Shown in pieces: positions 3,467-58,124 of a DNA stretch of 64,000 nucleotides; position 1 is the first letter of the stretch; each line of letters starts with the position of its first letter. The notes beneath the pieces are model-generated. The model saw only the letters and a list, made by a program, of their open reading frames with translations. It was not told the origin of the DNA and did no database searches. Where the stretch lies: assembly GCA_951406725.2 (NCBI GenBank), contig OX597830.1, forward strand, positions 68,882,001 to 68,946,000, given 5' to 3'. Made by a program: the position numbers and the translations under genes. This stretch comes from Octopus vulgaris (taxonomy: Eukaryota).

Positions 3467-3644
3467 TTTGTTCGTGTGGATCACCAAACCCCTATGGAGA
3501 TTATGATGTGTTTGGTAAGATCTACATGGAATATTCGTTTACCAAGTTTGCTTATTTCTGTGATTGGGGGAAGAAAAGAGATTCAGTTGAACCCACATAC
3601 TGAAGCTGTTGGGCGTGGTTTATACAAAGCAGCAAGAACCATAG
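3467..3644 (+). CDS. TRPM: TRPM-like exon A1 (SLOG copy A)
   Basis: atatag|TTT...ATA G|gtataa; [59 protein letters not shown] matches the TRPM 'YVRV...W.L..P.LLISVTGG...GL.KAA' pattern; ends phase 1. Confidence 0.92.
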
Positions 3645-3670
3645 GTATAAAGTTTTATTTAATAATAATA

Positions 3671-3751
<81 letters not shown>

Positions 3752-4940: not shown

Positions 4941-4986
<46 letters not shown>

Positions 4987-7900: not shown

Positions 7901-10471
7901 CCTGATACACTATCTGTATCTTGCATCAATCTCTCTGTGAATATCTAAATTTATTGACTACACCCTCCTTGTCTGAGTCCTTCCTCCTCAGGGCCCCCTC
8001 TTCTCACTAACACAGGCGGGTGTACTGACAAAGCTTAAATGAACAAACCTATGTTGAAAATCATTCCAGCAATGACCATCCCAACTTATAAAGGGTTTTT
8101 CAGACTATTTCCTTCAATGTGTTCTCTCCTTTTCAAAGACAGTAGGGAGAGAGGGAGGAGATATAATTGCTATTTTCTGAAGGTCCAGTGACCATGTAAA
8201 GGTTACTTGAGGAATTGTGAAATGGAAAGAGTGACAGTCATGTACTATTTCAGAGCATTACTAGACTTGAGCCAATAAGTGAAACCAAGTCACACTTCCA
8301 TCTAAGACTTTACTCTTGCTCTCTAACAAAACACATTTCAAGTTAGCAATATGGAATAAAAAATGCAGGGTGCTGATGATTATAGCTGAAAAGGGCTGAA
8401 TGAAGTATATTGTTGTATTTAGGTTTTGGTTCTTTCCGTTATGAGTTCAAATTCTACTTGGGTTGTATTTTTGATTTATATGTCTTGTCAAGGATTCATT
8501 GAAAAATTAATAATTGAGTTTCATTTAGTTCATCATATCTTTGTTTCTATAATGAGAAATGTATCAATATTTGAATCACCTCCAGTTAGTGACTGGTGCC
8601 TATTTCATCAAGTTTACATGGACAAAGGAAATTCAACCATTTTGTGTGAAGTCAGAATGTGAAGCAATATAACTAAATACCAGAAGGTATTTTGTGCAAA
8701 AATCTACAGTAGTTTTAGAATAAGAAATCAATATTTGAATATAATTCTTGATCTCTTGTTTTGCAGATGCTTGGATCATAACTGAAGGCTTACATACTGG
8801 AGTTGCGAAATATATTGGGAAAGTTATGCATAATAAGGAAAATAAAGTGGATGCCATGAATGAAGTGACAACTCTTGGTATTGCACCATGGAACTGTGTA
8901 CTGAAGAAAAAATCCCTAGTGAATAAGGAGGTAAATTTCTGTTTCAGATATTTTCCTTTTTTTAACCTCTTATATATCCTTTCTCCATATTAACATTAAG
9001 TATCGATTTATATCATTTTACTGTTGGTGTTTGAAAGTTCAATATTAATTATAAAATGGTAACATTTAATTATTAAATTACATCAAGACATAAAGAAAAA
9101 TCCATATGATTTCCATTTATGATACATTGCTAATTTTGTGATAAGAGAAGTAATATTTTCAAGGGTTCTTGACTTTCGTGTGTGTATTATTTTTTTCTAT
9201 TTTATTTGAAACGAAAAAGTAAATGGCCGGGTGAATGAGATATTTGACTACCTGATCATAGAGAATGAGTTCTGTTTCATTGTTTCTGGGGAAAATACTA
9301 TGTTCTACATTGCCTCAGTTTTTTTTTTGTTTTTTTTTGCTTATCAAGATAAAAAATATCAATTTGACAATATTCCATCACTTCTCAAAGATTATCAATC
9401 ATCTTGGTTTCTTGCTTGACATTTTGATCTAGTTTCTGGTTTTGGTTAGAGTTTGTGTGCAATGGATATAACTCAACAAGTCATTCTATATTAAACTTAT
9501 TGTTTCTTCCTTTATGCAGTGTAACTATTTGACAGAGATTAAGATTTAATGTGGTTATATAGCAGAGATCTCTTGCCAGGAGCCTGGTTCTGGGAGTCTT
9601 TCGTGCTTTGCTGACTCTGATATCCAGTTGAATTATTTACGTGAATCGAAGTAGTGGTTAAAGACAACACATGGGTTATGGGTTTTTACTCTGTTTCCAC
9701 CACCAGTTGTTTCAAAAATTCTGCAAATATCCTGAATACTTCACTTGTTTCCCTTTCCCCAAGCTAAAAATATAATAACGAAAATACAAAACGTGACTAT
9801 CACAACATAGAGAAAAAGATACCCTGAGGTTGTGTGAGATTTGGATTAAATCACCTTATAGCAAATGAGTAGTGTAAGATCCGCAGAAAGTCAATATAAT
9901 TGAGCAGCCATATCCATGGATCTTCCCTGGTTATTTTAAAACTAAAGATTGTGAAAATACATAATTTCTTTGCATTATGTTTTTCTGAAGCAATTATTTC
10001 TCGGATTTGTGTAAAGTTCTCTTAGAGAAAACAATATTCTTTCTTATAGAATTGTTATCTCTTCATCTTTAGGAGTTACTTTCTTTTATTTTTGTCCTTA
10101 CGTCAGAAAGTAAAAACTTCGTAGAAAAAGCTATACGCACTTGTTCATGAGGAATCACTGGTTTAACGTTCTTCCCTTTTGTCTAGTGACAATATCATAA
10201 AACTATTTTAAAGTTATTGAAAGGTTTAAAGATTTAAATAATCTTAACAGTGTAATGAAATCAAAGACATTCTATAGTATCATTATGCTATGATACGACT
10301 ACACTGAGACCAGTGTTACAAATCTTAATACATTTTCTATTTTAGAGAATAGTGCATACGACTAGAATTGAGATCGCTAACCTAGTGAACAAAGTACTGC
10401 ATCTGTCACGCTGCAGTATGGATTCTAAATTTGTGTATGTATGTATGTATGTATGTATGTATGTATGTATG

Positions 10472-10531: not shown

Positions 10532-13500
10532 GGGGCCTCTAAATTGCGCACAAATGAAAACAACTCTCGCATCTCGTTTTAACAGATATTTTAACAAACT
10601 TTCATTAAAATATCTTGAAATGCTAAAGAGTAAATTTATTATATAGATGAACCACTCACTGCAATTCTTCAGGCCAGTCGTTTTGTTTACGCTGGTGAAT
10701 ACTGCCATACTCCTTGCTTTCAGTTCATTTTTGGTGTCACAAGAAGTTTCATTGGTCTCTTACTCAACTGCGCCCCGCACATAATAATGAAGCGGGTTGC
10801 TGTCTGGGAAGTTAGGTAACCAGATGTTAAGTGTGATGTGGTTGCGGAAATTGTCTGATATCCATGACTGGGTTCTACAGCTTGTGTAGTATGCTGCAGA
10901 GTCCTGTTGCCAGACATGAGGTCTTCCAGCAGCCACCCGCTTGACCTAGGGCAGCACTACGTCCTCCAAGCACTTTATGTAGGGCTCTGTACTGAGTCTG
11001 GAGCCATGTGGGAAGATGAATGGAGGCATAATGTCGCCATCACTAGTGATTACACCAAACACTATGATGTTGAGGGGATGTTTGATTTTCATCTCACTCG
11101 GTACATATCAAATTGCACTGTCCTCAGATTGACACCCAAACAATCTGAAATATTCGTATTGGAGCTTCCAGCGCGAATGCCAAGCAATACAGTTTGTCAT
11201 TTCCAAATGTTTGGCATAGTGAATTGCGTCATGGTGCTGCTTTAATCACAGACTGTGCCCAACTGACCCTACTATAGTGTGTAGTCGACAAAATCAAAAA
11301 CGAACAATGCACATAAGCGAAAGCAAAAAATTAAAAAATAAAATGGTGACAATTTCTGATATTCAACACGGAATTCTCTGTATTTGAGTGCGGAACTCTC
11401 TGTTATTCAGATTATTATTATCATTGCTTTACTTCTCAGAACGTTCAGTCTCGTTTTTTCTGGTAGATTCTATGAGAGAAGACAGCAGCCTGCAGTCAGA
11501 GATCTCACAAAATCTCTTTCTGCACATTATATGATACTTGGTTGTTAATTATTGTAGGAAACTTTCAATATACAAGTACCAATCTCAAAATCCTACCTGT
11601 CCCCAGTAGATCAGTTTTTTGGCCTTGCTCTGCTTTCATGTCAATTCCGATTTCTTTGACATATTTCTCGAACTTGGTTGTTAGTGCTCGGAGTGCCCTT
11701 AAAACTACTGGAATGACAGACACTCTCCTCGTAGTCTATATTCTCGCAATTTCGTCTTTTAGAAGTCTGTACTTTTCAATCTTTTCTAGTTCTTTGTCAC
11801 TTATGCGTGCATCTCCGGATATTGCAATATCTATAATCTTGGTTTCCTTTTTCCCTTTATCTACCACAACAATATCTGGTCTCCGAGCCTTGATCAAGGA
11901 ATCACATTGGATCGTAAAATCTCACAGTATCTTATGTTCCTTGTTCTCAGTGACTACTTCTGGTTCGTGTTCGTATCATTTCTGTATTCAGTTCAGGTCG
12001 CACTTTTCACACAGCGTCCAGGAGACAAACTTATCCGCATTATCGTGCCTCCTTTTGTAGTGCCTTTGAGACAGCTTGCTACACTCACTCACAATATGTG
12101 AGATTGTTTCGTTTTCGCTTGCACACATCCTAAAAAGAGGCGGTTCGGAATTTGGTGTAATTAGTTCTCAGAGCTTGTTCCTAGGTGCTACATATAAATG
12201 CCTCACTGCATCCTTTCAGATCACTTTTTCTTAACCATCTGTAAGTATTGATCTTGTCTTTTCCTTCGATTTCTCTGAGGTATTGCCCATGCAACGGTTT
12301 CATTTTCCAGTTGTGTACTCTTTTTTCATTTTGTTTCTTAAATGCTTGTGGGTGCCCTCCTGTTACAGGAGAACTTATAGGCATAATCGAGGAACCGCAC
12401 TGTCCGAAATTTCCCCGAACACCAAGAGCAAGTGCCCACTCCGACTTACAGGTCTACACTGAGAGAGGTACCATCCACTCTTGCCATTTTTGCAACTTTC
12501 ACCCACCTTTCAATACACTCAGTCAAGGACAGAACTTCCCTCTCCACTCGCAATTTCATTTTTCAAGTGAAAATCCACTTCCTTTCATAGAGATTTTTAT
12601 TTTCCTGTAGCCAGGGGAGACGTTTACGCTGGTCTATATTTATCGACTGTGTGATGTTTAGTTCTTCAACTTTTGTTATTTCTTCAATTGGTTCGTCTCC
12701 CTCCTCGGTTTTAGCTGGTGTGTGTTATTTTGTTTGTTGTTTTATGCTTCAGTATTCGCCTGTCTATGTGTGTTGTTTATGTGTATGGAGTGTCATTATG
12801 CATCTGTATACCAATTCATTAGTGTTCTTTTTTTATGTCTGTAAACATTAAAATCTCCCTAACACATTCAGTATAACACAATCCATATTCTGATACTTTC
12901 TCTCCCTATTTCCAAAGCTATCTCTCTCTTTCTCTTTTTCCCACTTTTCCCTGCTCTTTGTTACTCCCCCCATCTCTCTTAGCTGTATATTTTTCTGTAT
13001 CAGAACAAACAAAACACATATTTTTATGTGACAATGGTTTTTATAATATGTATAACAATTAAAATATTGATTTGATTTCTAGGGATCGTGGCCTGCAGAC
13101 TATTCCATACAAACTAATTCTAAAAAAGAAAAGTATGCATTGGATCCTAATCATTCACATTGTATCCTTGTTGATGATGGTACCAAAGGCAATTTTGGAG
13201 AAATAATTGAATTCAGAAAAAAGTTAGAACATACTATTTCACAAGAGAAAATCCCAGGTAAGTTGTTATTACTGAGAAATCTAAACATATCATACAGAAC
13301 AGAGATGAAATATTATTGAGAATTCCTTGTTAAATTGACACATACATCATATCAAATGTCTCCCTTTAATATGGAACCGATCTTTTATAGGTTTTAGTTA
13401 AATTATTTTTAATATTTAAGACCTAAGCAATTCTATTTTTCTATGGTATCCAATCAACATTTACTGAATGATTCTTTTATTCCAATGTTGACCGGTTCAG

Positions 13501-16500: not shown

Positions 16501-19500
16501 GGGTAAGTGGTTGGAGAATGTTTCTTTGTTATGAGCATTATGTCCTTATTATTCTGTTGAAATAAAAAAGATTATAGAGGTTATATAGAATTTATATAAA
16601 GCATCTGTGTTGCTAACACCTGCATGTGGAAGTTAAAAAGCAGTGAAGAACGCTGTCACCTGAGTATTAAGCATTTCTGTCTTTTCTGTTTTAACATATC
16701 TGTACAGTTTTATATTTATTACAGTTATGTATGTCTATTGTGTCTGTAATATTTGGCAGATGGATTTAGCATTTAACTATATATATTTCATTGCATCTGG
16801 GGAGAGTCATTCTCTTTTAGCACTTTATTAATTTAACACACTCACCAGTCCAATTTCCAATAATTTATTTATACTAAAATTTTCGTTGCACCTTTTCAGT
16901 AGTCGGAGAGTCAATGGCTATTGAAATGATTGCAAGACACAATGAAAATTTGAGTAAAACTAAATAAATAAATGAATGGAAATTGGGCTGGTGAGTGTGT
17001 TAAATTGATAAGGCACTAAAAGAGAATGAATCTCTCCAGACACAATAAAATTTGCTTCAACACAAGAATTCACATAAAGAATCTTGCAAACCAAATACAA
17101 AAAAAAACAACAAAAACAATGAAATATATACACTTTGTATTAGTGAAAGAGTATTAGCTTAGTGTAGTAATATTTTTATGAGAGATGAGGTAGTTGTTAT
17201 GTAATATATAAAGCAAATTCAATTAATTCCAGTGGAAATTAATGTTAATTAACATGTGTATGTCTTTGTAAAATATATACATATCAAGGTGGACAGAACC
17301 TGAGAAAGAGAAAGACCTAGGAAGACCTGGGTCAAAGTGGGGAAAAATTACCCTCACATTTTGTGCTTTACAGGTGAGGTGACAAAGAACTGAGATGATT
17401 GATGATTTGGGCTTCAGGAGACATGTCCATCCAAGTAAAACTGAGACCCTAAAGACATATTGCCTATGTCTGTACACCTGCACACAATCCATGTCTCTGA
17501 TGAATCTCTCCCCAAAGACATATCTTCTTATGCCCCTCCCTCCACCCATGTTCACCTCTCACTGCAATCTCCTCCCCTCCATCTCACCTTTCACACTCTT
17601 ATGAATTTTCCTACCCACTCACCTTACCCAATCCTCTGTACCACTTGCCATATTCACACCTTTCTCTCTGAGGGAATGCCCCAACACATCTTCATCACCC
17701 TCTTCTTCTCCGTTTCCACCTGGGGCAGCCATGCATCTTCTCTACTGCAACATACCTGCTTCTGTCCCCTTATTCATACTCTAACTTCTCATCACCTGGC
17801 ACAAAGCCACCTCCCTCAATACTAATTTCTCCTTCAGTTAAGGGGTCTTGTTTTACAACTCACTTGGTCCCCTCACCAGTGTTAGTACCACATAAAAGCA
17901 CCTAGTAAACTCTGTAAAATGGTTGGTGTTAAGAAGAGCTCCAGCTGTAACCTTGTTGAAAGAAATGGCAGAGCTTGGCATGGTCTTCTGGCTAACCATC
18001 TCAAACCAACCAGCCCATGCCAATATGGAGGGAAGGTGTTAAATGATGATGATGAGGATGTTGTTATTTTTGTAGTTGATGAAAATGATGATGATAATAT
18101 GGATGCATGTTTCTAAAAACACAACGTGCTTAACTCATGCTAAATTTTATACTCCAGACAAGTCATGTTTTATACATTAGTCAAATATATTTCCTACCCT
18201 AATATTCTAGACCTAAGTGAGGTTACATTTTATACCTAAATCAGGTATATTTTAGAACTTATACCATTTATTTTTACCTTAATCAGGTATGTTTTGTACC
18301 TTAATCAGGCATGCTTTTTTATATCCTTGCAATGGATATATGATATAACAAAGCAGTGAGGAAGAAAGTATATGCCTGATGCATTACTATTACAAGATAC
18401 CCAATGCTCAGTATTAAAAGGTTCACAGTGAACTGCTTACCAACATCAACTGCCAATCTCACACAGTTCTTTGTTTTATAACAATGAGACAGTCCACCTT
18501 TAGTCACTTGGGTGTGGTCAGAATCTTTCCCCAACAACTTTACAGCTTGATCAGATTATACTTCATACTTTAAAAGGTATATATTTTAAATTTAATCTGG
18601 TATACTTTTCATACATTAATTAGGTATTTGTTGCATCTTAGTCGGGTATATTTTATAAGTTAATCAAATATATCTTGTATCTTAAATATCATATTTTCTC
18701 TCACAATTTTAGAGCAAGAAAATTTCAAGATTCCAGCTGTTGTAGTACTGGTTGGAGGTGGACTTGAAACTCTGAAATCAGTCTTGGATTCAATATCACA
18801 CAACATCCCAGTTATAACAGTAAAGGTCAGTAAACAGACTATTCTGTGAAAAGGGTTACTGGAAGTTCATATCTTTTATGTATCTAAAGAAACTTGTGCT
18901 TAGGGAAACTAAATAGGACTACATGAGTATTTTGCTGGTGTAGAATTTTATATCAATATTTTATTTAATGATCTACATGGTTGCTGGTTTTATAGTCAAC
19001 TGCTTAAATCTTATGACAATTTCTATTGGATGAATGTAATTATATGTATTCAATTCAGAGTATTTTATAACCAATATTCTTTTTAAAAAATCTGTCTCTA
19101 AATTGAACCATGGAGAGTAAGTAGTATTCTTGATATTAACAGCTTAATAAGAAAATGCTCTGACAGACACTGTGGCTCCAACATGTTGAAAGATAATTAG
19201 AGGTAATTAGAAAACTCTAATACCTTCTGTTTTGAATAAGACAGAGGACTTGTTCTTCCTATTAAATATTATCAACAATACCTTCACTACATTTACAACA
19301 CATCCTAAAAGAAGGCAAGAGTTTAGCTGAAAAAAATATATAGACAGTAAATGGCCCCATATTTGACCAGCACAAAGATCCAACCTGCATCATACCAGTC
19401 CTGTCTGGACCCCTAATTTCTTAACAATCAATTTCAACAATCTACAAAGTACATTTTAACCGCCATGGACAGACAACAGGCTGTACACAGCACTCAGAAG

Positions 19501-22500: not shown

Positions 22501-25500
22501 TTGAGCAGTGTTACGGCTCCTCGGCTCACAAAACCAGGAATGCTCCCGTTTTGCTGCCAGTTGTAGTACACCGCTGCCAAGACGTCTCCAAACAAGTCTG
22601 GCATACAACTGTAAAGCTCGTAGGGTAGACCATCCAGACCCGGCGATTTGTCCCTCGAGCATTCTGCCATCGCGTCCTGCACTTCCGCCGCCGTGATGGC
22701 ACCTTCGTAGCGCCCTGCCTTTCTTGTCGAGAGTCGTGGTAGGCTGTGTAGGTAGGCACTGAAGTCCACCCTACGTTCTTGCCCGCCACTCGTCCCGAAC
22801 AGTCGGGCAAAATGCTGTTGGAACACCTCACACATTTTACTTGGCTCGAGCAATTCGCGCCCCTGTTCATCTACCAGAGACCGAATGGCGGCTTTGTTGC
22901 CCTGTTGCGCCTCTGCCACCCGGGCCTCTCTCGCGGCTCCAACACCTTCGTTCCTTAGAGCACGCATCCTAGCTCTGACAACACACCCTTCGTGTTTGGC
23001 GTTGAAGTGTTGGTCGAGGGCCAACCTCGCCGCCAAAACGTCGGATGCGATGCCGCTTCTAATTGCCTCTTCTAGCTTCTTAACTAGCTCACCCTCAACT
23101 CTATTTCTATCTATGGCTAGTGCTTTGCTGTACCTAATCGCTTCTGCTTTTACTGCTCTCTTGAGGGCAAACCACCATTTGTTGTTGATGATGGCTCCCG
23201 TCAAAGCCCTCTTTACTAGTGTGCTAATCCGGTCTCTGAAAACCTGTCTCGAAGGGAAAGACGCGTTTAGTTTCCAGTATTCGGGACCCTGCCTATGTGT
23301 CTTACCTAAATCTAGCGTACATGTCACAAGTTTGTGATCCGTGTAGCTGACTATGTGGAATTGTGGACATCCTATGCTATCTCTATCTACTGTCCTACAC
23401 TGTATCCTATCTAGATACGATCTCGACGACCCGATGCGGTTGCTCCATGTCCATGTTGGTGCATTCGGGTGGTCTAGTCGGAACCTGTCAGACAGTTGAA
23501 AGCGTCTGAGCAGGTCTCTGAGGCATTCTATCTCTGCATCCCCCAAGGTACTTCCATTCCTATCTACCAGACGTTGAAAGAAATCCGCCCGACCTGTTAG
23601 TGGTACATGCGAAAAGCGCACCCATTGCTGCCGTCGAATCCAGGTAGTCTATCCGGCTCTAATATTGTCCCCACTAAAAGAGTGCCACTAATTCTTGGCA
23701 GACAGAGACGAACTTCCCCAAACATACTTCTAGATGGCTATGATTTCGTTGAAAGTCAAATCCCTTGTTTCCTGGGGACCCCAAGCCACACGCATTTACA
23801 CAACCAATCTTAATAATAGAAGATGGTAAAGTGGTTAACATCCAGGGGTTATGAGTTCAAACCCATTGTGACATTTGTTATGTTTCTATGTAGATAGTTA
23901 CATTTTATATTGTCACAACTCAGCTCTAAAGAATTAGTTCCAGAACAATTCGGTTCAGTCTCAGACCAGAACAACAGTTGACTCTATCTACTTTGCTCTT
24001 GTCTCCCCAACACGGAGACATCTTTATTGGATTGTATGTGTATTTTAAAGGAATTTTCAAAATATTTGTTCATTCTTAGATTGCTTCTTATTTGCAGATT
24101 TAGTTTTAATTCTTGAATTTTTTTCTTTTTATTATCAGGGATGTGGTCCAGCAGCAGACTTTATGGCATTTGCTAACCAAACAGAATTTGAAAATGTAGA
24201 CGAAGATGATGGGTATGTTATTTATTTGATAGTATGATAGTTTTATTATTGCATTTGTTGTCATTTCTGATTCTATTGCTATTAGATATGTTATTGTTTA
24301 ACACCTTTTAATCCCGATAAAACAGGTGTATGAACAAAACGAGACTTTATTATTCCACTGTGTCTGTCTATATTTAGGGTATGATTTGGGAGAGATTTAG
24401 GTCATACTTTTAACAAATTGAGTGACAAGGTAAATTACTCCCTTGTTGGCTTGCAACTCACCTATTACTAAAGTTGATAGTTTGATTTTAGAGCTGGTAT
24501 TCATAGCTTTGTAGATATTCATACCTTTGATTGGAACTTGTCAGATTTCTATTACTAAAGACTCAAATTTAAGGCAGTATGACATGACACTGCTAATAAT
24601 CATAATATTGATTTCTTATGTTGACCCAAGGTTCCATATTTGCTGGGGAAAGATAGTGGATCCAGTTCAGAACTGTCTGGATTTGTCTGTTTCTTTTTCC
24701 ATCCAATTTAAGGGATCAGATCAAGCAGTAGGTATCATGACTTATTCTTATGAAATAACACTGAAATTTATTGATAGAAATGGTAAATATGAATTAATCA
24801 AGCATGGGTTTAATCAATTCTGGGCACACTCTCTCAGGTTGTAAACTTAATTCATTCCATCATTAAATACTGAAGTACCTGGTGGGGATTCAACAAGACC
24901 ACTTAGTCCTTCACTACCTTTAACATAATCCACAAGATTGCAAGCATTCAGACCAGGTCGTTGGTGTGAGGATAACATGATGTCATGATTCACAATACTT
25001 TCATTGTATAGTGTCTGTTTGCTTGTGAACTGATATGAAAGTGGTTCTCCAAAAGAGGCCTACCACCATATATGACAAAAGGTACTGTTGCTAACATCTA
25101 TAGACACAACCCCATTTCTTGTCATGTCTACCACATTATGACTTCCAGCTTAATTATTTGCAAGATTGGAAACTTGATTTGCAGCTACCCATAAGTTGTG
25201 GTTCATTCATGTCTTTCCCTCATCAACCACAGATGTCCTGTAAAAATTATGGGTCGTATCCTTCCTCCTTTAATTAAGCTCTGTTCATCAAACATGAAAT
25301 CCCTCAGCTAACACTATTTGTTATCTGTATCACTAATAGTGTAGCCTGATTAACATCATTTCTCATTTGAGCTCCAAGGTAGCAGTCTAGTTAATATATC
25401 TTGTTTGTGGCGCCAATATAGACCTTATGTTATTCTTTGTCTCTACCTTTCTTTTAATCACTATTAAAAGTGTTACGTATTATTTTCTGAAATAACTCTT

Positions 25501-28500: not shown

Positions 28501-29889
28501 AATATTTATGTCTGGTCTATCATTTTAAATTTCTCGTCCCTTCGAATAGGAAAGTCCCACAAAGCCATACATTTCTCCGGCTACAGTACTCTTTCAACTC
28601 AATGATTATACCATGTGTTTCCAGGTTCAAAATCCCCATTTCTGTCACAGTTTCCAGTGTATAACATTTACAACTTTGTCGTGCCTCCATTTCTTATATT
28701 CTTACTGTGCCAAATTGGGGCATTCTGTCTTGTTCCAAGTTTCACAGGCTCTACACATTTCTGACAAATTCTGTACATATATATTTTTTTTCTCAAATTG
28801 TTTGTCTCTATCACTTGATTTTAGGCTGCTATAATTAGGCTCCCTGTTTCTTTATTAACATCCTCTTTTTAAAAAAAAGCCCAGGATTTTGTTTCACGTA
28901 TGACTTCAGTGGCTCTCTAAAATTAGCCATGCAGAGTTTATTAAATATTTGGATTTAATAAAAGAACATTTAAATATCGACTGACTGTTTGTTCTAAAAT
29001 CTATATTACAGCGCAGAACAACAACTTAGAAAATTTGAGGCTCGCATTTGTGTGGGACAGAAGTTATATCGTAAAACGTCTAATATTTGAAAAGACTCAG
29101 CAGAAAGTAAGATAATATATTTTTATCACTTCATGTTGTGAACCATTAATAAATCGACTTTTACTTCTGCTAGAAAGGAAGGAAAGTATTTCAAATACAT
29201 TCCTAACTAATGTTATGAATGTATTTCAAAAATTTTTTAATGGTAAATTTTAATAATTTGAATGCTTGTAAAATATTTATTGTTTATTTCTCTATAGTTT
29301 TCACCATTCTTTCCCCACTATTTCACTCTCCATACGTATATAAATATATATATGCACCTGCACATAATTATAAATGTTGCAAATATTACGAAGAAACAAA
29401 ACAAAAGCAACGTAAAACATATACACTGAGTTGGTATTAGTTTGGTGGAAAAAAGAAAAAGAAAGTATTTATATTTCAAGTATTCGCTCTTCTTCTGAAA
29501 GATAGGATAGACATGGAAAGAACAGAACGTAGCAGGGTAATTTGAGAAATTGAAATACACATATGTCCAACAATCATGGAAGGGTGGACGACTGGAAGAA
29601 TTAGAAAGATCGCTTTAGGCGGGAGTGACGTGAGGGAGAACTATGCACCTGGCATATGTTTCTGTGTGAGTGGGGGCCGAGCATGTTTAGTTGTTAGTAT
29701 GTGTATGACGCTATGTACGTTTGCGTGTGTATCTGTATATAATATCTTGTTAATGATGTGTGCATATGAGTAATAAGTGGAAAAGTGTGAGGTGGCAGGT
29801 ATATGTAAGAAGTGGTAAAAAAAGGGAAGGGTTAAATGTAGAGAGGTTGGGAAATAAGATCATTGGGGAAAGAAGCCTAGAAAGTGCAA

Positions 29890-41900: not shown

Positions 41901-44900
41901 AATACCACAATTCTCAATATTATGAATACAAACAATAAATCATCACAATGAAATATGTTCACAAAACTGCCAGCATTTGAATGTTTTTATTTCATTGTAT
42001 CACACATTAAGTTACATTAATTAAATGCATTTTTCCTCACATATAGATTGATTACAAGATTCACCAAACCCCAATGAAAGCAATAATTCACTTGTTAATG
42101 CATCGATGGTCGAGATCCTCATTGCCAAGCTTACTTATTTCTGTGATTGGCGGAAGAGAAGACGTCCAGTTGAATCCATTTACTAAACAAGCTCTTGGGC
42201 GTGGCTTGGTTAAAGCAGCAAGAGACAATGGTATAAAGTTTTATTTAATAAAAATAATAACAACAATAACAGCAACAGAAACAACAACAACAACAGTAAT
42301 GTTTTATTAAACATCCTTAAACAAACCTTGTGCAGGGACCTTTTGAATGGGACGGGCTACTCGACCTCAAAAAATTTTAACTGGACCCCACCTGCAAGGT
42401 GTTTATCTTGATATGAGATCACCTTGTGCCGTACATATGGTTGTGATACACGTTCCTAGTGCACCCTTTTTAGTCGGGTAGTCATGATGGGTATATTGGG
42501 TTTCATATATTTGTACCCCAATGTCACTTTGATGGCATGCACCGTTCTCTCACTCAGTAATAATGATGATGGTGATGATGATGATGATGATGATAATTTC
42601 TTTATTGATCACAAAGTGTTTACATTACGAAAAACATTATGGACAGTACATGGCAAAGCAAATAATTTCTGTATGTGAATGATGGTGTGTTGTGAGAGTT
42701 TTGCGTGTAAACAGCTTTAGCATAATGGAAGGAAACGAAACAAATTTAACAACGTATAATCCTCAACAGTGGGGAGACGTTCAAGAACTGCTCATGGAAA
42801 AACCTTATAAAAACCATGGGTACCCTGAATTTTGGGGCAGAGAATTCTGTTTCTTTCCTTTTCTCCAATTAGAGGCGTGTGCTCTGCGCAGACCCATTCA
42901 CTCGCATCATTCACGCCACTCTCATCTACCTTTCAGTAGTCCAGAGCTGATCGTCATTTTGACAGGCTTACTTAAGTATAATATTTCTCTTTGCACTCTT
43001 CCATCTCTCTTTGAATATTGCTTGAAAAACTCCTATTTTTGAGGCATTGGGAAATGGAAAGAGTACATTCATTCATTATTCCAGAATATTACTAAACTTG
43101 AGCCAATAAGTGAAACCCTGTCACACTTTCATCTAAGATTTAACTCTTTCTCTAACATACAACACATTTCTAGTTTGCAATATGGAATAAATCAAATATG
43201 CTGGGAGAAGACGTCTGTGTCTGGAAAAAGCTGGACTCGTAAATGTATTTTAGTATTTAGTATTTTATTTCGTTTCGTTACAAGTTCAAATTTTGCCAGC
43301 GATTCATCTTATTCTACCTATCTTGTCAAAGATTGATTTAAAAATTGATAACAGTAGATTCTGGGTTGATTCAATACATCATATCCTTGCTTACATAATG
43401 AGAAATATATCAATAGTTAAACCGACCTCAGTTAACGACAGGTGCATATTTCTGCAAGATTATATGGAAAAAGAGAAAATTCCAGCCCTTTCAGTTGTTT
43501 TGAAGTCACTATGTGAAGGAATATAATTAGATATCACAAAGCATTTTCTCCAAAACTCTTGTGTAATTTTAGAATAAGAAACCAATATTTAAATATAATT
43601 ATTGATCTCTTGTTTCGCAGATGTCTGGATCATAAGTGAAGGTTTACATACTGGAGTTGCGAAATGTGTTGGGGAAGCTATAAATGACTATACATCTAGG
43701 AGTAACTGTCATAGTATTGGTATTGCAGATCGGAACTATGTAAAAGACAAGAAATTGAGAGTGAGTAACAAAGTAAAGTTTTGTTAAATTTTTTTCCTAT
43801 TCTTAAAAAAAATGTTCTAATCTTATCCTTTCTCCGTAGTAACATTACGTATTGATTTATATTATACTGTTGGTGCTTGAAATTTTGATATTAATTATTG
43901 AGGTGGAACATTTAAGTACCAGATTACAGCAAGGGATCAAGAAAAGACCCATATAATTTATGATGAAATGCTAATTTTATGATAAGTGAAGTAATATAGT
44001 CAAGGTTCGTGACTTTCATGTGCGTATTTTTTTCTGTTTTACCTGAATTATAAAAGCAAAACCAGCTGAGTGAATAAGGTGTTTGTCACCTGACGATAGA
44101 AAATGAGTTCACTTCTACTGCTGGTATTTCATTGTATCTGGGGAAAACCTTTTATTCTACTTTGCCTTAGTTTCCTTACCTTATTATAAATAAATCGCAG
44201 TATATATGTGTAATGACTAATGCATACATTTCCACAATTTTCAACCGATTTTCACCAAACTTTATACTCATATTACTTATGTCCCAGGGATTGTCATGCA
44301 CTATAACACTTTGCCCAGAGCTCCCACATAAATGGATGTAAATGGACATAGTTCTTTGTATGCAGAGTCTTCCATACTTTACTAATCGTTTTATAAAAGT
44401 GAAAGGATTTGTCTATTTCCACTGTCCACCAGCGACGGTGATTAAATTGACAAGGAACATTGAACGCATACATTTCCACAATTCTCAACCAATTTTGACC
44501 ATACTTTACACACGCATTACTTATGTCCTGAGGATGGTCATGCACTAACAAATTTTGCCCAAGTTCCGGCGTAAATGTACCTAAATTGACATGGTTTTTT
44601 ATATGTAGGGTTTTCCTTTAATCTTTTTATAAAGATGAAGGGTTCGTATTTTTATTTATTTCGACTGTCCACCAGCCACGGCGATTAAATTGACTAGGAA
44701 CACTGTACGCGATGAATATCCAATACCAAACAAACTTAATCTCCATATTTAAAATTTGGCAATCTTACCTTTACCTATTCTGAGTTACTTTAAAGGTAAT
44801 GTTCCCTTCTCTCTCTGCTACTTGTTGATACATTTGTTTACCTACCAGTGCGTTGTTTCACTTTAAAGATGCTTATTTACCCATCCATTATGATATTTTG

Positions 44901-51243: not shown

Positions 51244-51304
<61 letters not shown>

Positions 51305-51327
51305 GTATATATATATGTATATGTATA

Positions 51328-51362
<35 letters not shown>

Positions 51363-51384
51363 ATATATATATATGTATATGTAT

Positions 51385-51438
<54 letters not shown>

Positions 51439-54400
51439 TTATATATATATATATGTATATATATGTATATGTATATATATGTATATGTATGAATCTTCAA
51501 GCTCCTTTGTGAATTTTTCCATTATCCTTTGTTGAGGAAATTTGAAATCTCCTTGTCTATTCTTCCAGCACGGATTCCAAGGAGGAATCCATGCGGGGTA
51601 TGTATGTTATTGGGTCTTCATCCCCATGTGCATTAATTTTACCTCCATGTTGTTCCATTGATTAGAACAACTGGAACACCTGTTCTATCCGAGTGCCAGT
51701 TTAATATACGTGTATGCATTTATATATGTGTACATATTTATGCATGCATGTATACATATAACCGTATGTATATATGTATCTATATATGTTTGTATTGGAA
51801 GGGAGAATGTATGTGGGTATGTTGTCCTTATGTTGTGTGATTATGCATTCCTATAGCAATTCACTAGTGTTCATTTTTCTAATGTCTGTGAACATTAAAA
51901 CGACTCCCACCAACACATTCAGTATAACTCAATCCATATTCTGATACTCTCTCTCTCTCTATCTCTCTTTCTCACTCCTTCCATCTTCCCCTCTTCTCTC
52001 TCTCTCTCTCTCTCTATCTATCTTATCTATCTATCTATTTCTCTGTTTCCCTTTCCACCAATCCTTCATTGTTTTATATTTTACTATGTCAGATCAAACA
52101 CAACACATATTTATATGACAATGATTTTGATAACATGTATAATTTCTAAAATATTGATTTGATTTCTAGAGATCGCAGTTTATAGAGTATTCTAGAAGGG
52201 ATGATCCTTATACAGGGCTGTATGACTTGGATCCTAATCATTCACATTTTATCCTTGTTGATAATGGTATTCAGGATGAGTTCAGAAGAATGTTTGAAGA
52301 TACTATTGCAGAAATGAATATTCCAGGTAAATTGTTATTACAGACAAATCTAAACATAACATATGGAGCATAGATGATACACTAAGGATACCTTGTTAAT
52401 TTCATACACGCCATATTATTTTTTTTAACAGGGAATCAGTCGGTTATAAGCAATAGTTAAATTATTGTTAATATATTTATATCTAACTTAAAGCAGTGAG
52501 CAGGCAGAATCATTAGCATGCTGGTCAAAATACTTAGCAACCTTTCGTAGCTCCTATTTGTTCTAACTTAAAATTCCACTAATATTGACTTTGCTTTTCC
52601 TCATTTGGGGTCTACAAATTAATTACCAGTTGAGCACTGGGATTGATAAAATCAACTTATCCCCTCCTTCGCAGTTACTGGCCTTTTACCAAAATTGGAA
52701 ACCAATATATTTACATCTAAACTATTCTATTTTTTTAAAGCCAACCAATTAACATTTACTCAGTGATTCTCCTATTGTGATGTTGATATATTCAGTAGAG
52801 TCAGTGTTTTGCTGATGAGGTTACAATAAGGTTGAAATATATCTGGATCTGTCTCCAGTACCTGCCACTATGTAGCTTTGTCCACTATACTGAAATAATC
52901 ATTTTCTCTTTTTCCAAACATATTCTTCATTTTCCTAAATATTTTATGTAACTTTTATTTAGGGAATGCTGATGTCACCTTTGGGCTGGTGTCCCTTCTG
53001 ATATTCTTCATCTCCTTGGTTGAGTTTAAAGCACGTATCTGGTCCTGTTTTTGCAGCTAAACTTCAATCCCATCTTATTACTGTGGCAATGCATTTTTTT
53101 TTATCGCTATTTTATAAATACTTCCATGGTCATTCTTCTGCCTCACTTTCTCCTCTTGTCCCTCTTCTAAATATGGCTAATTGAGTGATTCATCTATTTG
53201 CTCTTTCTTATCCTTTTACTGTTCTTATTCCCTCCAGTCAGAAATGTTTGTAATTTCAGTGTCCCCCGCCCCACTATCTATCTTACAGAATTCTATTTTT
53301 TCTTGTTTCTCAGATAAATATCATTTTCAGTTTTCATTTCTTGCACTGATTCCTTTTTTTTATTCTTATTACAGCTTCTCATTAGACCAGAAAGTTGATC
53401 TCCCCAAAAGATTAGCTCTCAAGTTCCTAAACACTTTAAATATTTTAATATTGGTTTAAAGTGATGCCAAATTAAGGCAGGCATGGATTTTATTGGCTCT
53501 TGTTACTTTTGGGATCACTGGATGGGTCTGATAGAAGTCCCTTGACAACAACACAGCTACCCTTTTGAGATCCGCTGTCATTCTATTCTTTATTGATTTG
53601 TCCAGAGCCTCCAGAGCTCTTTTGTTTACAATTGTGTAACAATCCAAGACAATAATTTGGCATCTTTTAAGAATTTGTCTGACTTCCAAACTCATGGCAA
53701 TTTGGCACACAGGTGCATCAAGTCCTACAGGAACTTGAAAACTGAATTTGCTGTATTTCTCCCTGGAAGAGTGTGGAAGCAAGAGCTGAAAAACAGCTGC
53801 AATTACTGTAGTATTATGTTGATAGCCATTTCATGTTGTAAAAGAGGGCTTGAATGGTCCAGTAACTCTGAGAGCAATCTATTACTCTTGTATGGTCACT
53901 CATGTTTCATAAATCAAAGACGTGAACCCAGACAGAAATATAGACAACCTTTTCAAGACTCCAATGACAAAACAAGCAGATGTAAACAGCTACAATGATT
54001 GATTTCAATACTGTCTACGATCGTGCCACTCAGAATTATGAGTTAGTGGCAGTCTACCATTTCCTTTATCTGATTCTACATGTTCTGTAGAGGATGGTCC
54101 TGAAACCACAATGTGTGGGTCATTCCCTATCAAGTTGGGATCCACAATAAACTAATCCTTATCAGCATTTCCTTTTGATGATATATTGAGAGACTTTGGC
54201 AAGCAATAGACTGAAACAAGAATGTCTTTCCAGTTCTACTATCAAGTTCCAAGAAGCCAGTTCCAGAGTCTTGTTCTTGAACCCTATCAAAAATAGCAGA
54301 AGACATTTCCCTTTGCTCTTCAGTGAATTTGAATTAATATATCAACATTATATTCTTATTTCTTAAAGCTTTATTGTTCAAATAAGTTTTGTACCATTTC

Positions 54401-56588: not shown

Positions 56589-56648
<60 letters not shown>

Positions 56649-56691
56649 TATACACACATATATATATATACACACACATATATATATATAT

Positions 56692-56734
<43 letters not shown>

Positions 56735-58124
56735 TATATATATACACACACACATATATATATACATATATAAAGGAGGATGGAACTTGAGGAGGAGGAA
56801 GACCTATAAATATGTGGGAAAAAGTATGTAAAATGACCTTCAGATTTTGAGTTTCACAGAGGATATGACAAAGAACTGGGATAATTGATCATTTGGGCTT
56901 CAGGAGATCTGTCTATCTATGTAAAATCGATGTCCTAAAGGCATGTTGTTTATTTCTATACCCCTGCACACAATCCATGTCTCTGAATCTCTCCCCCAAA
57001 ACATATCTTCCTGCCCCCTCCCTCCACTCACATTCACTGCATTTTTCTCCCCTCCATCTCCTACTCACCTTTCATAAACTTACCTACCCACTCACTCTAG
57101 CCAATCTTCTGTACCAATTCCTATAGATACACCTCCCTGTAATTTGATGGAATGCCCCAATACATCTTCTTCACCCTCTTCCCTCTCCCTCTGGTTCCAC
57201 CTGGAGTAGCCATGTATCTCTTCTACTGCAACATATCTGTTTCTATCTCCTTATTCATACTCTAACTTCTCATCAGCTAGCACAAAGTTACCTCCCTCAC
57301 TACTACTCCCCCCACTCAGTTGCAGTTTCTTGTTTTGCAAGTTACTTGGTCACCTCTCTAGTGTTGGTGCCACATAAAAAGCACCCAGTAAACTCTGTAA
57401 AGTGGTTGGTGTTAAGAAGAACATCTGGCTGTAGAAACCATGCCAAAGCAAATGGTAGAGTCTGGTATGGTCTTCTGGCTTACCATCCAACCCGTACCAC
57501 AATGGAAGAAGGACATTAAATAATGTTGGTATAGACGACGACGACGATGATGATGATGATGATGATGATGATGATCATCATCATCATCATCATCATCATC
57601 TTCATCATCATGGTATTGATTTATGTTTTCTAAAACCTGAAGTTATGCTAAACTTTATATTCTAGTCAAGTCATACTTTATACATTTTAGACCTAAATGA
57701 GGTTATACTTAATGTGAGATGTATTTTAGAATCAGTTATATTTTATTATTAAGATATAATTAAAAAGATATACATTTTACTTTAATCATTTATATATTTT
57801 TACCTCAATCAGGTATGTTTTGTACTTTAACCAGGTATGCATTACACCATGATCTGGTTATACCTTCTACTTTAACCAGGTATATTTAAAAATTTAATCA
57901 TGTATATGTTTTATACACTAACTAGATATGTTTTACCTTAATCAGGCATATTTCATAATTTAATTAGATATATATTTTTTCTTAATCAATTTATATTTTC
58001 TGCTATAATTTTAGAGACAAAAGTCAAGATTCCAGCTGTTGCAGTAATGGTTGGAGGTGGACCTGGAACTCTGAAGTCAATGCATGATTCAATATCACGC
58101 AACATCCCAGTTGTAATAGTAAAG
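3467..58124 (+). CDS. TRPM: Partial spliced CDS of a TRPM-family (TRPM2-like) gene with two tandem N-terminal SLOG/MHR1-2 modules; open at both ends
   Basis: Exons 3467-3644, 8767-8930, 13083-13257, 18713-18825, 24139-24212, 25521-25702, 29012-29106, 33670-33701, 36573-36654, 42047-42230, 43621-43772, 52170-52326, 58015-58124 total 1698 nt (566 codons) with no stop. All introns are GT..AG and the phases match. TRPM MHR1-3 motifs seen: [40 protein letters not shown], VGGGxx[20 protein letters not shown]. Confidence 0.8.
3661..3750. repeat. (AAT)n microsatellite
   Basis: About 30 AAT units immediately downstream of the exon A1 donor. Confidence 0.95.
3751..4715 (+). mobile_element. 3' part of an R4/Dong-clade LINE (Zn-knuckle and restriction-like endonuclease), interrupted by a SINE
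   Basis: CRICGK...[27 protein letters not shown], resuming at 4176 as HWLLCRK, then RPDI, IIDVAVP and DKYGDL motifs; contains stops and frameshifts. Confidence 0.8.
3871..4175 (+). mobile_element. tRNA-derived SINE with 13-bp target-site duplication
   Basis: A-box tgacctaatgg and B-box ggttcgaatc; flanking near-direct repeats atagcctccactg (3858-3870) and atagccttcactg (4176-4188). Confidence 0.85.
4752..4940 (-). mobile_element. Degenerate tRNA-derived SINE; related copies at ~35590-35790 (-), ~36110-36310 (-) and ~52493-52706 (+)
   Basis: Shared motifs gaaaggcaaagtcgacc...atttgaa and actggtatttaatt; the plus-strand copy at 52493 shows the tRNA-like head. Confidence 0.6.
5000..5295 (+). 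mobile_element. R4/Dong-clade LINE fragment
   Basis: [31 protein letters not shown]...[12 protein letters not shown]; preceded by (AAT)n at 4943-4985. Confidence 0.75.
5400..6895 (-). mobile_element. Decayed ORF1/gag-like region with CCHC zinc knuckle and structured 5' leader (probably L1/Tx1-type)
   Basis: The minus strand at ~5810-5860 translates as [14 protein letters not shown] (C-x2-C-x4-H-x4-C); GC-richer, hairpin-rich upstream segment at 6670-6895. Confidence 0.45.
7410..7860 (-). mobile_element. Mariner transposon 3' half with one terminal inverted repeat
   Basis: LLHDNTRPH...[18 protein letters not shown] and C-terminal GEYIID; terminus ta-ttgggttggcaagtaagtt at ~7410; frameshifted. 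Confidence 0.9.
8767..8930 (+). CDS. TRPM: TRPM-like exon A2
   Basis: ttgcag|AT GCT TGG...GAG|gtaaat; [55 protein letters not shown]; phase 1 to 0. Confidence 0.93.
10433..10529. repeat. (TATG)n(TA)n microsatellite
   Basis: Direct repeat. Confidence 0.95.
10560..11350 (-). mobile_element. Degenerate Tc1/mariner-superfamily (maT/DD37D-like) transposase remnant
   Basis: Minus strand ~10700-10950 reads [28 protein letters not shown]...[16 protein letters not shown], compare QQDSAPxH and WPPNSPDxNPLDY. Confidence 0.7.
11410..12340 (-). mobile_element. R4/Dong-clade LINE 3' fragment
   Basis: [14 protein letters not shown]...WLRKSDLK, followed on the minus strand by endonuclease motifs RRPDIVV and IDIAI; ends at an (ATT)n tract near 11410. 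Confidence 0.75.
13083..13257 (+). CDS. TRPM: TRPM-like exon A3
   Basis: ttctag|GGA...CCA G|gtaagt; [58 protein letters not shown]; carries the [14 protein letters not shown] hallmark. Not in the ORF track. Confidence 0.93.
14130..14900 (-). mobile_element. Helitron Pif1-helicase remnant (copy A)
   Basis: Collinear homology to 53440-54150, which translates to a Pif1-like helicase segment. Confidence 0.6.
16779..17130. mobile_element. Foldback/MITE-like insertion with long inverted arms
   Basis: 16786-16900 is an inverted repeat of ~16945-17050; outer termini tatatttcattg / caatgaaatata; absent at the homologous site in copy B (~56420-56440). Confidence 0.7.
17860..18060 (+). mobile_element. 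RTE-type 3' end/SINE-like element ending in (GAT)n; homologue at 57340-57610
   Basis: aaaagcacc..gtaaactctgtaaa..ggttggtgttaagaag...gttaaatgatgatg, the same tail family as 55975-56355 and 61510-61685. Confidence 0.6.
18150..18700. repeat. Degenerate ~23-nt palindromic minisatellite (ATACCT-taatc-AGGTAT) upstream of exon A4; homologue at 57640-58000
   Basis: Repeated variants such as tatacctaaatcaggtata, taccttaatcaggtatg and tacattaattaggtat. Confidence 0.65.
18713..18825 (+). CDS. TRPM: TRPM-like exon A4
   Basis: ttttag|AG CAA...AAG|gtcagt; [38 protein letters not shown]; phase 1 to 0. Confidence 0.92.
20110..23815 (-). mobile_element. Tx1/L1-clade LINE ORF2 (APE, RT, C-terminal Cys-rich domain), frameshifted, with polyA signal and (ATCC)n(ATTC)n tail
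   Basis: ORF pieces 22434-23621 ([26 protein letters not shown]), 21931-22437 ([18 protein letters not shown]), 21234-21881 (GGLGMP) and 20605-21381 ([13 protein letters not shown]). [11 protein letters not shown] at ~23810 marks the APE start. AATAAA on the minus strand at ~20222-20227. Confidence 0.92.
24139..24212 (+). CDS. TRPM: TRPM-like exon A5
   Basis: tatcag|GGA TGT...GG|gtatgt; [24 protein letters not shown](G), matching the TRPM GSGxAAD motif; ends phase 2. Confidence 0.88.
25521..25702 (+). CDS. TRPM: TRPM-like exon A6
   Basis: ttctaag|G AAA...AAA G|gtaaga; [60 protein letters not shown], matching the TRPM 'LITVF...D.D.AIL.AL.K' pattern. Confidence 0.88.
25900..26450 (+). mobile_element. 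Penelope-type terminal-repeat-like fragment carrying a hammerhead-like motif
   Basis: CTGAAGA (26209-26215), a long hairpin, then GAAAC (26279-26283); the surrounding sequence resembles Penelope terminal repeats as recalled. Confidence 0.4.
26590..28050 (-). mobile_element. R4/Dong-clade RT fragment
   Basis: [14 protein letters not shown]...YKYLGI; minus strand also gives HLLYMDDLK at ~27160-27180 and [10 protein letters not shown] at ~27270-27295. Confidence 0.8.
28190..28810 (-). mobile_element. R4/Dong-clade endonuclease fragment
   Basis: Minus-strand [15 protein letters not shown] and RPDI-like motifs; degenerate. Confidence 0.6.
29012..29106 (+). CDS. TRPM: TRPM-like exon A7 (start of MHR3)
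   Basis: ttacag|CG CAG...AAA|gtaaga; [32 protein letters not shown], matching the TRPM 'QL.LA..WNR.DIA...IF' pattern. Confidence 0.87.
29897..29958. repeat. (TG)n microsatellite
   Basis: About 30 TG units. Confidence 0.95.
30975..32625 (+). mobile_element. Penelope-like element (RT and GIY-YIG), degenerate
   Basis: [48 protein letters not shown], and [29 protein letters not shown]; many frameshifts; C-rich strand. Confidence 0.88.
33670..33701 (+). CDS. Putative 32-nt linker micro-exon ([10 protein letters not shown])
   Basis: Pyrimidine-rich tract then tttcag|GAAGATGATGTGGACACTTCAGAAGAAGCGAG|gtaatg. Phase 0 in and phase 2 out, exactly the phases needed to join exon A7 to the 36573 exon. 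No homology support. Confidence 0.6.
36573..36654 (+). CDS. TRPM: TRPM-like exon B0 (start of second N-terminal module)
   Basis: gtttag|A TCT...AAG|gtaatt; (R)[27 protein letters not shown], matching the TRPM 'TDAFG.I.F......K' motif that precedes YVRV; phase 2 to 0. Confidence 0.8.
36830..37500 (+). mobile_element. Old RTE-clade RT fragment
   Basis: [25 protein letters not shown]...LYLTF...KTFDRIP, compare QFGFVPGRST...QEKYL...DLEKAFDRVP. Confidence 0.65.
38810..41700 (+). mobile_element. Near full-length degenerate RTE-clade LINE inserted only in copy B
   Basis: APE motif WTWYSPDG...[12 protein letters not shown]; RT motifs [13 protein letters not shown] and YADD; [20 protein letters not shown]; RTE-like 5' UTR at 38810-38935; the flanks join up relative to copy A at ~2700. 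Confidence 0.85.
42047..42230 (+). CDS. TRPM: TRPM-like exon B1 (paralogue of A1)
   Basis: atatag|ATT...AAT G|gtataa; [61 protein letters not shown]; flanking intron sequence is homologous to that of A1. Confidence 0.9.
43621..43772 (+). CDS. TRPM: TRPM-like exon B2 (paralogue of A2)
   Basis: tcgcag|AT GTC TGG...; [51 protein letters not shown]. Donor is either the homologous site at 43773 (gtaaag) or an in-frame gtgagt at 43761. Confidence 0.88.
44180..45745 (+). mobile_element. Non-autonomous Helitron-like repeat with internal ~240-nt tandem units
   Basis: Unit 'catttccacaattttcaaccgattttcaccaaactttatac...catgcactataaca' recurs at ~44225, ~44470 and ~45545; a ctag|atatatataaaa junction at ~45512; absent in copy A. 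Confidence 0.5.
45950..46285 (+). mobile_element. Diverged CR1-type LINE 3' end
   Basis: Similar to the C-terminus and 3' tail of the element at 49230-50590 (CNSLG...RDL...PDE; ggcggtgcaccagcatggcc). Confidence 0.65.
46286..46962. repeat. (TA/TATG)n low-complexity tract ending in (CAT)n
   Basis: Direct reading; the YI/MY ORFs here are artefacts. Confidence 0.95.
46963..48925 (-). mobile_element. RTE-3'-UTR-derived element expanded into a modular tandem array
   Basis: 46963-47105 is the reverse complement of the RTE-type tail family (compare 56185-56350), followed by ~60-70 nt modules that form ~300-360 nt higher-order units. Confidence 0.7.
49230..50590 (+). mobile_element. Young 5'-truncated CR1-clade LINE with open RT/C-terminal ORF
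   Basis: YGFRPGR...[13 protein letters not shown]...[11 protein letters not shown]...YADDTK...[10 protein letters not shown]...SLERRR, uninterrupted to the stop at 50512; 3' tail ttaaggatttaaggattt; embedded in (TA)n. Confidence 0.93.
50590..51490. repeat. (TA/TATG)n tracts enclosing an exact copy (50980-51147) of 46940-47105
   Basis: Direct comparison of the two segments. Confidence 0.9.
52170..52326 (+). CDS. TRPM: TRPM-like exon B3 (paralogue of A3)
   Basis: ttctag|AGA...CCA G|gtaaat; [52 protein letters not shown]; 18 nt shorter than A3. Confidence 0.9.
53440..54150 (-). mobile_element. Helitron Pif1-helicase remnant (copy B)
   Basis: ORF 53456-53782 reads [28 protein letters not shown]...[26 protein letters not shown], compare Helitron Pif1 IVWDECTM...LEALDR...GDFRQTLPVIP...ACLK. 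Confidence 0.75.
55975..56355 (+). mobile_element. RTE-tail-family non-autonomous element with (GAT)n end, copy B only
   Basis: ggtgacatgtaaaagcacccactacactc...aggaagggcatc...catgctagcatggaaagcggacgttaaacgatgatg; absent at ~16700 in copy A. Confidence 0.7.
56545..56772. repeat. (TA)/(CA) microsatellite
   Basis: Direct reading. Confidence 0.95.
58015..58124 (+). CDS. TRPM: TRPM-like exon B4 (paralogue of A4)
   Basis: ttttag|AG ACA...AAG|gtcagt; [37 protein letters not shown]; canonical GGPGT motif. Confidence 0.91.

Follow-up and report, generated by a model that had tools for sequence, protein, structure and literature searches.

In TRPM channels, ligand binding to MHR1/2 reaches the gate via MHR3/4, and pore-less TRPM1 isoforms may regulate the channel. 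The Thoeris protein ThsA is a SLOG domain fused to a Sir2 NADase effector and has a TIR enzyme as partner. A 2026 survey that includes Octopus bimaculoides describes, in its accessible part, the four-part melastatin region as consistent in TRPM and TRPS and mentions no repeats there (PMC13143021). In nvTRPM2, the substitutions Y264A and R329A raise the EC50 for ADPR more than 1000-fold, and T143, T179 and T307 weigh less, according to the accessible part of PMC7201885. The accessible part of PMC7179873 does not show regulation of the channel by pore-less TRPM1 isoforms.

Here we describe a genuine multiplication of the sensor domain of TRPM, spliced and found in the Octopus lineage, within this known family. 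Each repeated module resembles MHR1/2 plus the start of MHR3; its best PDB sequence match is nvTRPM2 (6co7, E 1.7e-56), with the human TRPM2 structures 6puo and 6puu as a further reference, and the best fold matches of the modules are MHR1-3 of TRPM2 and TRPM7. Whereas TRPM-beta and TRPM2-like proteins have one SLOG module, the octopus family has up to five; compared with TRPM2-like proteins, modules A-D include no more of MHR3 than its first helix, and erosion has affected the ADPR pocket. Unlike the TRPM2 chanzyme, the octopus channel is devoid of NUDT9-H and ends after the coiled coil, and the gene copy studied here is poreless as assembled. Multiplication of MHR1/2 up to five times, with four copies off the gating path, would be a departure from the four-part layout. 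The modules share a domain superfamily with ThsA (LSDAT_prok also matches), but derive from animal TRPM, and Pfam scans of the models detected no Sir2 or other effector domain, LSDAT being the sole strong match in array models. The Thoeris link drawn in a previous reading of this DNA, made from the sequence alone, is one of shared domain family only.

No repeated SLOG modules are described in the accessible portions of the open-access literature on octopus or cephalopod TRP, TRPM and SLOG/LSDAT proteins, nor in those of PMC7306681, bioRxiv 2021.11.14.466824, PMC7201883, PMC7201885 and PMC7179873. The TRPM section of PMC13402157, as far as its accessible text goes, contains zero uses of SLOG, MHR or tandem, and the locus and protein identifiers of the array have no mention in the literature searched. 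This agrees, for the accessible texts, with the sequence-only reading, which knew of no description of the architecture. Because annotation splits the array into 'uncharacterized' proteins, pore-based TRP surveys would miss it. The array offers a natural series of MHR1/2 pockets for asking which ligands besides ADP-ribose SLOG domains bind, an issue for most TRPMs. For octopus biology it is a new candidate sensor or immune gene family that evolves fast and varies in copy number.

Exon Architecture of Modules A and B

The window is a stretch of 64,000 nucleotides of the 2.8-Gb O. vulgaris genome (C17, OX597830.1, 68,882,001-68,946,000); coordinates are those of the window unless given in Mb. 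All 13 exons that had been proposed are present at their positions with AG/GT ends (Table 1). The spliced frame has no stops and comprises 562 codons (1,686 nt), not the 566 reported, a difference that comes from a B2 donor placed 12 nt downstream of 43760. The donor at 43760 is indicated by the end of an RNA contig piece and by RefSeq models, and the B4 acceptor is corrected to 58015.

Table 1. Exons of the two SLOG modules in the window. Residue positions follow nvTRPM2.
Feature	Position	Strand	Remarks
Module A exon 1	3467..3644	+	SLOG strand 1 and Gly loop; Ile at the T143 position
Module A exon 2	8767..8930	+	
Module A exon 3	13083..13257	+	Phe at the Y264 position; R271 kept
Module A exon 4	18713..18825	+	T307 kept; Gly loop altered
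Module A exon 5	24139..24212	+	Pro at the R329 position
Module A exon 6	25521..25702	+	One codon shorter than in the 44.6 and 67.4 Mb paralogs and RNA contigs
Module A exon 7	29012..29106	+	First MHR3 helix, module end; RNA joint to linker
Linker micro-exon, 32 nt	33670..33701	+	Like the short first exon of other modules and the D-E acidic-linker micro-exons
Module B exon 0	36573..36654	+	RNA joint to B1
Module B exon 1	42047..42230	+	RNA joint to B2
Module B exon 2	43621..43760	+	
Module B exon 3	52170..52326	+	6-residue deletion; Y264 loop gone
Module B exon 4	58015..58124	+	

The frame encodes two TRPM modules, each consisting of MHR1/2 and the start of MHR3 (SLOG), and the computed distance from A1 to B1 is 365 aa, as had been claimed. 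Also in agreement with that reading, copy A ends after the first MHR3 helix and is followed by the linker exon and B0. The PF18139 (LSDAT_euk) profile matches the window exons. Neither tblastn nor the PF25508 profile detects an MHR4, S1-S6 or TRP-box exon between the copies, in line with the earlier reading, which also saw none. With eight TRPM-family proteins as queries, tblastn gave no match to MHR4, S1-S6 or the TRP box in a region reaching from 100 kb before the window to 300 kb past it, and a PF25508 search of the genome gave none at the window gene or its flanks. A full cassette is made up of nine exons covering SLOG/MHR1-3-start, and its end phase equals the start phase of the next cassette.

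The A/B duplication is seen in the introns as well, at 70-80% identity with an offset of about 39 kb; A and B are an old genomic tandem duplication. The deletion in B exon 3 is common to the B modules of O. bimaculoides and O. sinensis. The A intron at 13412-16702 and the B intron at 52707-55971 are about 80% identical overall, and a part of the latter matches the A introns of other copies at 89-92% identity. These intron identities suggest gene conversion between modules.

In intron A4-A5, a GC-rich insertion with interrupted ORFs lies on the minus strand (21237-23648); the ORFs presumably resemble those of a LINE retrotransposon, and two pieces of the insertion gave no Pfam matches. A nested tandem repeat in intron B2-B3 (47108-48927), with (TA)n tracts on either side, has periods of 63, 172 and 351 bp. 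Fragments weakly resembling a DDE transposase and a reverse transcriptase lie in introns at 7627-7881 (minus strand) and 40378-40848 (plus strand). Rfam has no match anywhere in the window.

The Gene beyond the Window

Further repeats outside the window had been predicted, and modules C and D are indeed found downstream. On the upstream side there are N-terminal repeat exons, with A-1 at -7380 and A0 at -2248. Downstream, positions 66425-172393 contain B5-B7, a complete module C and D0-D4, the last exon D4 ending at 172393. The D0 exon is duplicated in this gene, and D2 has 163 nt instead of 164, so that the frame stops 1,227 codons after A0.

As assembled, the window copy is missing D5 and everything onward, and no pore exons lie within 300 kb downstream. 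Similarity of the copy to its paralogs in the D4-D5 intron extends to about 184,850 and breaks off 1.5 kb before D5 would be reached. From there the sequence runs on uninterrupted into DNA rich in mobile elements, and a gap (100 N) is first met at 240,222. The 68.1 Mb copy likewise leaves the D4-D5 intron before D5 without a gap. Other copies are interrupted here by large insertions, so a tail may be concealed beyond the 240,222 gap, and the odds between a truncated copy and one split by the assembly are about even. As the assembly ends after D4, the window copy would encode a soluble protein with three and a half to four heads, unless the gap hides the tail. A D5-bearing contig at 67.70-67.80 Mb is a candidate continuation of the window copy; the two share only a local mobile-element family.

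The Array Family on C17

A genome search with PF18139 gave 81 exon matches. Seven head arrays lie on C17, at 44.6, 67.4, 67.84, 68.24 and 68.5 Mb, in the window copy and at 79.6 Mb; besides these there are a fragment on C60, E-type modules and single-module TRPM genes. The arrays were read in part, the sequence excluding 68.50-68.60 Mb, most of 68.12-68.24 Mb, 67.91-68.00 Mb and C60. D5-D7 segments were found three times and E-type channel segments four times.

The paralog at 79 Mb (C17:79.2-79.65 Mb) is gap-free over 440 kb with all parts on one strand. Its order is N-terminal exons, A0-A3 fused to B4-B7, C, D0-D7, ten acidic micro-exons and module E, followed by MHR4, S1-S6, the TRP box, a coiled coil and a stop. 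From D4 to E7, 23 AG-GT exons give 665 codons with no stops. The 44.6 Mb paralog contains A, B and C0-C3 with no frameshift from A0 to C3, then a 100-N gap and, on the same strand, exons from S1 to the C-terminus. The 67.4 Mb array ends at a gap beside gap-flanked contigs with an inverted E-channel and a D5-linker piece, a neighbourhood that looks like mis-ordering. Single-base deletions, most of which fall in short base runs, occur in four of five copies compared (D2 in the window copy, A2 at 67.4 Mb, A3 at 67.8 Mb, and at 79 Mb A2 twice, C4 and one MHR4 exon); these may be read errors or decay.

Models of channel-bearing paralogs match PF25508 and Ion_trans. No NUDT9-H or Nudix domain is present in models P0009 and P0123, and in the genomic channel sequence the stop follows the coiled coil. 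A genome search with PF23317 was uninformative, as it gave no matches in the controls either. Pfam LSDAT_euk matches RefSeq models of the gene family three to four times (E 1e-180 to 1e-232), far from chance.

RNA Evidence for Splicing

The RNA contigs come from four runs, representing at most three samples and two studies; the runs have no RNA label on record and were taken as RNA-like since their contigs skip GT..AG introns. The joints 25700>29010 (A6>A7) and 29106>33670 (A7>linker) occur in three of the four runs, and 36652>42045 (B0>B1) and 42229>43620 (B1>B2) in all four, each with GT..AG ends. Two of the junctions predicted from the sequence, 29106>33670 and 36654>42047, are thereby seen in RNA, whereas the third, 33701>36573, is not among the 15 joints listed, beyond which there are 23 more. 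The match of one RNA contig to the genome stops exactly where the linker ends, leaving 12 letters unmatched, and two species have RefSeq models that contain the linker>B0 join. The joints 25703>42119 and 42175>43618, which have no GT..AG ends, were rejected as paralog artefacts.

Exons A7, linker, B0 and B1 are identical between the window copy and the 44.6 Mb paralog. At exon A6, the three runs with cover all carry the codon that is absent from the window copy. Run X2 has all three substitutions and the extra codon of the 44.6 Mb copy, and the other RNA is of the 67.4 Mb type. The contigs show expression of the family and cannot be tied to the window copy: lack of expression of the copy A exons, named earlier as a point that would count against the tandem protein, is not observed for the family, and the A6 allele of the window copy is never seen in RNA.

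Contigs on D5 have at one end a 19-nt piece matching an exon-4 3' end in three of the four runs, which is shorter than the 31-letter bridging standard and falls where the exon-4 ends of B, D and E are alike; they continue into D6. Run X3 has no contig on D5, which was not counted as absence. For the D7>linker>E join, the support comes from RefSeq models and from the reading frame of the genomic sequence only. Contigs at L098:2415-2505 (runs X1 and X4) show expression of several diverged D5-D6 variants, which resemble the D5 copies at 67.72 and 68.02 Mb. The latter have only about 60% protein identity to the O. sinensis model over D6-D7, and the DNA around these D5 copies is 96-97% identical to the 79 Mb copy.

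A Probable Channel with Several Heads and Possible Soluble Forms

The sequence-only reading left two alternatives, a channel with a multiplied sensing head and a channel-less multi-SLOG protein. The in-frame tandem architecture and this pair of alternatives hold, and the evidence favours the channel as the full form of the family. The order of parts in the 79 Mb paralog, together with the orthologous modules of O. bimaculoides and O. sinensis, indicates that the ancestral gene was most likely a five-headed channel. We consider it probable that this is an Octopus TRPM-beta whose full form is a channel with up to five heads, with A-D acting as tethered binding or decoy domains and only E coupled to the gate.

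Unequal crossing-over would have multiplied the cassette before the split of O. bimaculoides and O. vulgaris; whole arrays would later have been duplicated and recombined, the window copy being a putative young mosaic of such arrays. In the channel, only E would run on into MHR3/4, with A-D hanging on an acidic low-complexity tether of about 140 residues. Truncation of A-D after one MHR3 helix and the acidic tether point to tethered, diversifying binding or decoy domains rather than ADP-ribose gating sites. The channel may be gated through E and calcium; calcium-site motifs, as we take them to be, look present in the octopus channel. Pore-less copies such as the window copy might supply free heads. 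That no single read or cDNA runs from array to channel counts against a many-headed channel.

Conversely, the main product might be a channel-less multi-SLOG protein whose transcripts end at D4, with the E-channel as a separate gene downstream and the array buffering nucleotides or binding and modulating TRPM. We regard this as rather unlikely. It would fit the excess of seven arrays over three D5-D7 and four channel segments, the gap-free departure of the window and 68.1 Mb copies from the D4-D5 intron, the stop reached within 3-7 codons on read-through of exon 4, and the models that end at D4 (one for O. vulgaris and, in RefSeq, that of O. bimaculoides). RefSeq gives array and channel as separate genes in both other species. 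Gaps flank the tails, however, so that tails may be collapsed or misplaced. Moreover, RNA contigs show splicing at either end of D5, and the models from O. bimaculoides and O. sinensis have conserved, open D5-D7 and linker sequences. No AATAAA occurs within 2 kb after D4 in the window copy, and a stop at D4 deletes the helix with the R329 position.

Divergence and Selection

Up to position 20,000 the window copy differs by 0.6-2.3% from the 67.4 Mb copy, and over 30,000-101,800 by 0.1-1.3% from the 44.6 Mb copy, with several bins at 0.1-0.4%. Judged from these divergences, the window copy appears to be a recent mosaic duplicate, and it may in part be the second haplotype of the 44.6 Mb locus.

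Between modules, Nei-Gojobori dN/dS (D2, linker and short first exons left out) is 0.93 for A-B (0.72-1.26), 1.00 for A-C and 1.23 for B-C, at dS of about 0.3. Between the window copy and its paralogs it is 1.27 for 67.4 Mb (0.80-2.28), 1.86 for 79 Mb (1.02-4.58) and 2.99 for 67.8 Mb (1.44-10.4), values that share the window copy, are non-independent and rest on few synonymous changes. When a neutral 355-codon frame was simulated 2,000 times at this divergence, it remained open in 0.4% of cases, suggesting that the modules are retained as coding while their residues change freely. Cross-species identity is 76-81% for modules A-E versus 85-93% for paralogs with one module. Rapid change extends to the MHR4-S2 part (75% versus 89% for a paralog), which suggests that the acceleration is gene-wide.

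It is conceivable, though improbable in our judgement, that the extra heads are near-neutral and tolerated in a redundant, relaxed TRPM paralog, the window copy being a decaying duplicate or partly the 44.6 Mb haplotype. The between-module intervals include 1, and values near 1 also fit relaxed constraint; erosion of pocket residues, the D2 frameshift, the duplicated D0, the mosaic with its least divergent bins against 44.6 Mb, and RNA at A6 of 44.6 Mb (X2) or 67.4 Mb type point the same way. On the other hand, open frames and splice sites persist in three species and between modules at dS of about 0.3, traits specific to one module, for example the deletion in B, are conserved, spliced transcripts of the family exist, and the intervals of two of the three paralog comparisons lie above 1, although the window copy is common to them.

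A diversifying receptor system is likewise only a tentative possibility. SLOG cassettes of matching phase would be multiplied and shuffled among copies by recombination, possibly with cassette-skipping splicing, giving channels with one to five heads of different tuning and soluble, pore-less forms under positive selection for new small molecules or pathogen products.

The ADPR Pocket

The pocket set used here is T143, T179, Y264 (aromatic), R271, T307 and R329 in nvTRPM2 numbering. At these positions, in order, window module A has I, L, F, R, T and P, and module B has I, L, a gap, R, T and R; C, D and E of this genome are without both the Y264 and R329 equivalents. No module in this genome holds both key residues, and the pocket changes differ from module to module. 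In O. bimaculoides, A keeps F and R329, and C keeps F. The parental paralog (XP_036366346 type) has T143, F264, R271, T307 and R329, that is five of six with Phe counted for Tyr. The R329 rule is not absolute, as a Branchiostoma TRPM has Gly at this position.

The eroded pocket predicts that canonical ADPR binding is weak or lost in the window copy. The earlier term 'nucleotide-sensing', understood as ADP-ribose sensing, is unsupported, since no module of this genome keeps both of the residues critical for EC50.

Other Species and Phylogeny

In O. bimaculoides, XP_052830016/17 (A-D4) are followed by XP_052830018-21 (E-MHR4-S2) with consecutive accessions, and three of these four latter models begin in D6. 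In O. sinensis, accessions of the array models and the E-channel gene are also consecutive. The models of both species are automatic annotation. Isoforms X1-X4 of O. sinensis XP_036366250-254 join A0-A3 to E4 and the channel, and X5 uses E1-E3; these are possibly alternative head cassettes, or an annotation artefact.

In a quick IQ-TREE phylogeny (53 rows; SH-aLRT only), modules A-E group in a single clade (SH-aLRT 98) whose neighbours are the Octopus TRPMs with one SLOG, among which it is nested, and each module groups across the three Octopus species. This indicates that the array is older than the O. bimaculoides split. XP_052830018 and the Octopus proteins among which the clade nests are TRPM-beta in Table S1 of PMC13143021. 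Nearest in the tree are the Octopus single-SLOG TRPM-beta proteins (XP_036366346, XP_014781149, XP_014774531), which lie on the same chromosome beside the 44.6 Mb array, have one module and evolve more slowly than A-E. The named cuttlefish relative that was found has a single module.

Two word-seeded searches, cluster look-ups and the best 150 of 2,310 matches from a scan of 1.84 billion proteins gave 294 proteins. The module profile matches 291 of them, and 20 cover it more than once: 14 from Octopus, two XP_072049890-92 isoforms, one Sanderia model, two probable artefacts and one partial repeat. Among the 294 proteins, ordered four- to five-fold arrays occur only in Octopus. The non-Octopus multi-module models suggest that SLOG doubling occurs elsewhere, at least in gene models. 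XP_072049890-92 (P0162, P0294) and Sanderia malayensis gene9475-10465 have two SLOG regions before MHR4 or the channel, which in the former, an unrelated animal TRPM, stand back to back; they are automatic models with two copies only, and fall in separate clades, that is, independent duplications. In the Sanderia model a longer MHR region is repeated, and it may be two fused genes. Multi-SLOG models from Crassostrea, with SLOG after the channel, and from sturgeon, contaminant-flagged and jumbled, were rejected as fused or faulty.

Predicted Structure and Minor Features

The AlphaFold prediction for P0005 (mean pLDDT 67, pTM 0.55) contains two similar alpha/beta units, and Foldseek ranks TRPM first (E 1e-20), but with TM-scores of about 0.2 and rmsd above 20 A. 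For the structure check that had been suggested, this prediction, which is of middling confidence, gives weak support.

The D-E acidic linker (C17:79,406,813-79,369,214, minus strand) consists of five micro-exon pairs. Its 32-nt members resemble the linker exon of the window in length and flanks, and from their sequence these micro-exons look like shrunken copies of the short first exon of a module. At 79.60-79.57 and 67.85-67.88 Mb, A3 is directly followed by B4 in an in-frame hybrid module, consistent with a genomic deletion between homologous introns.
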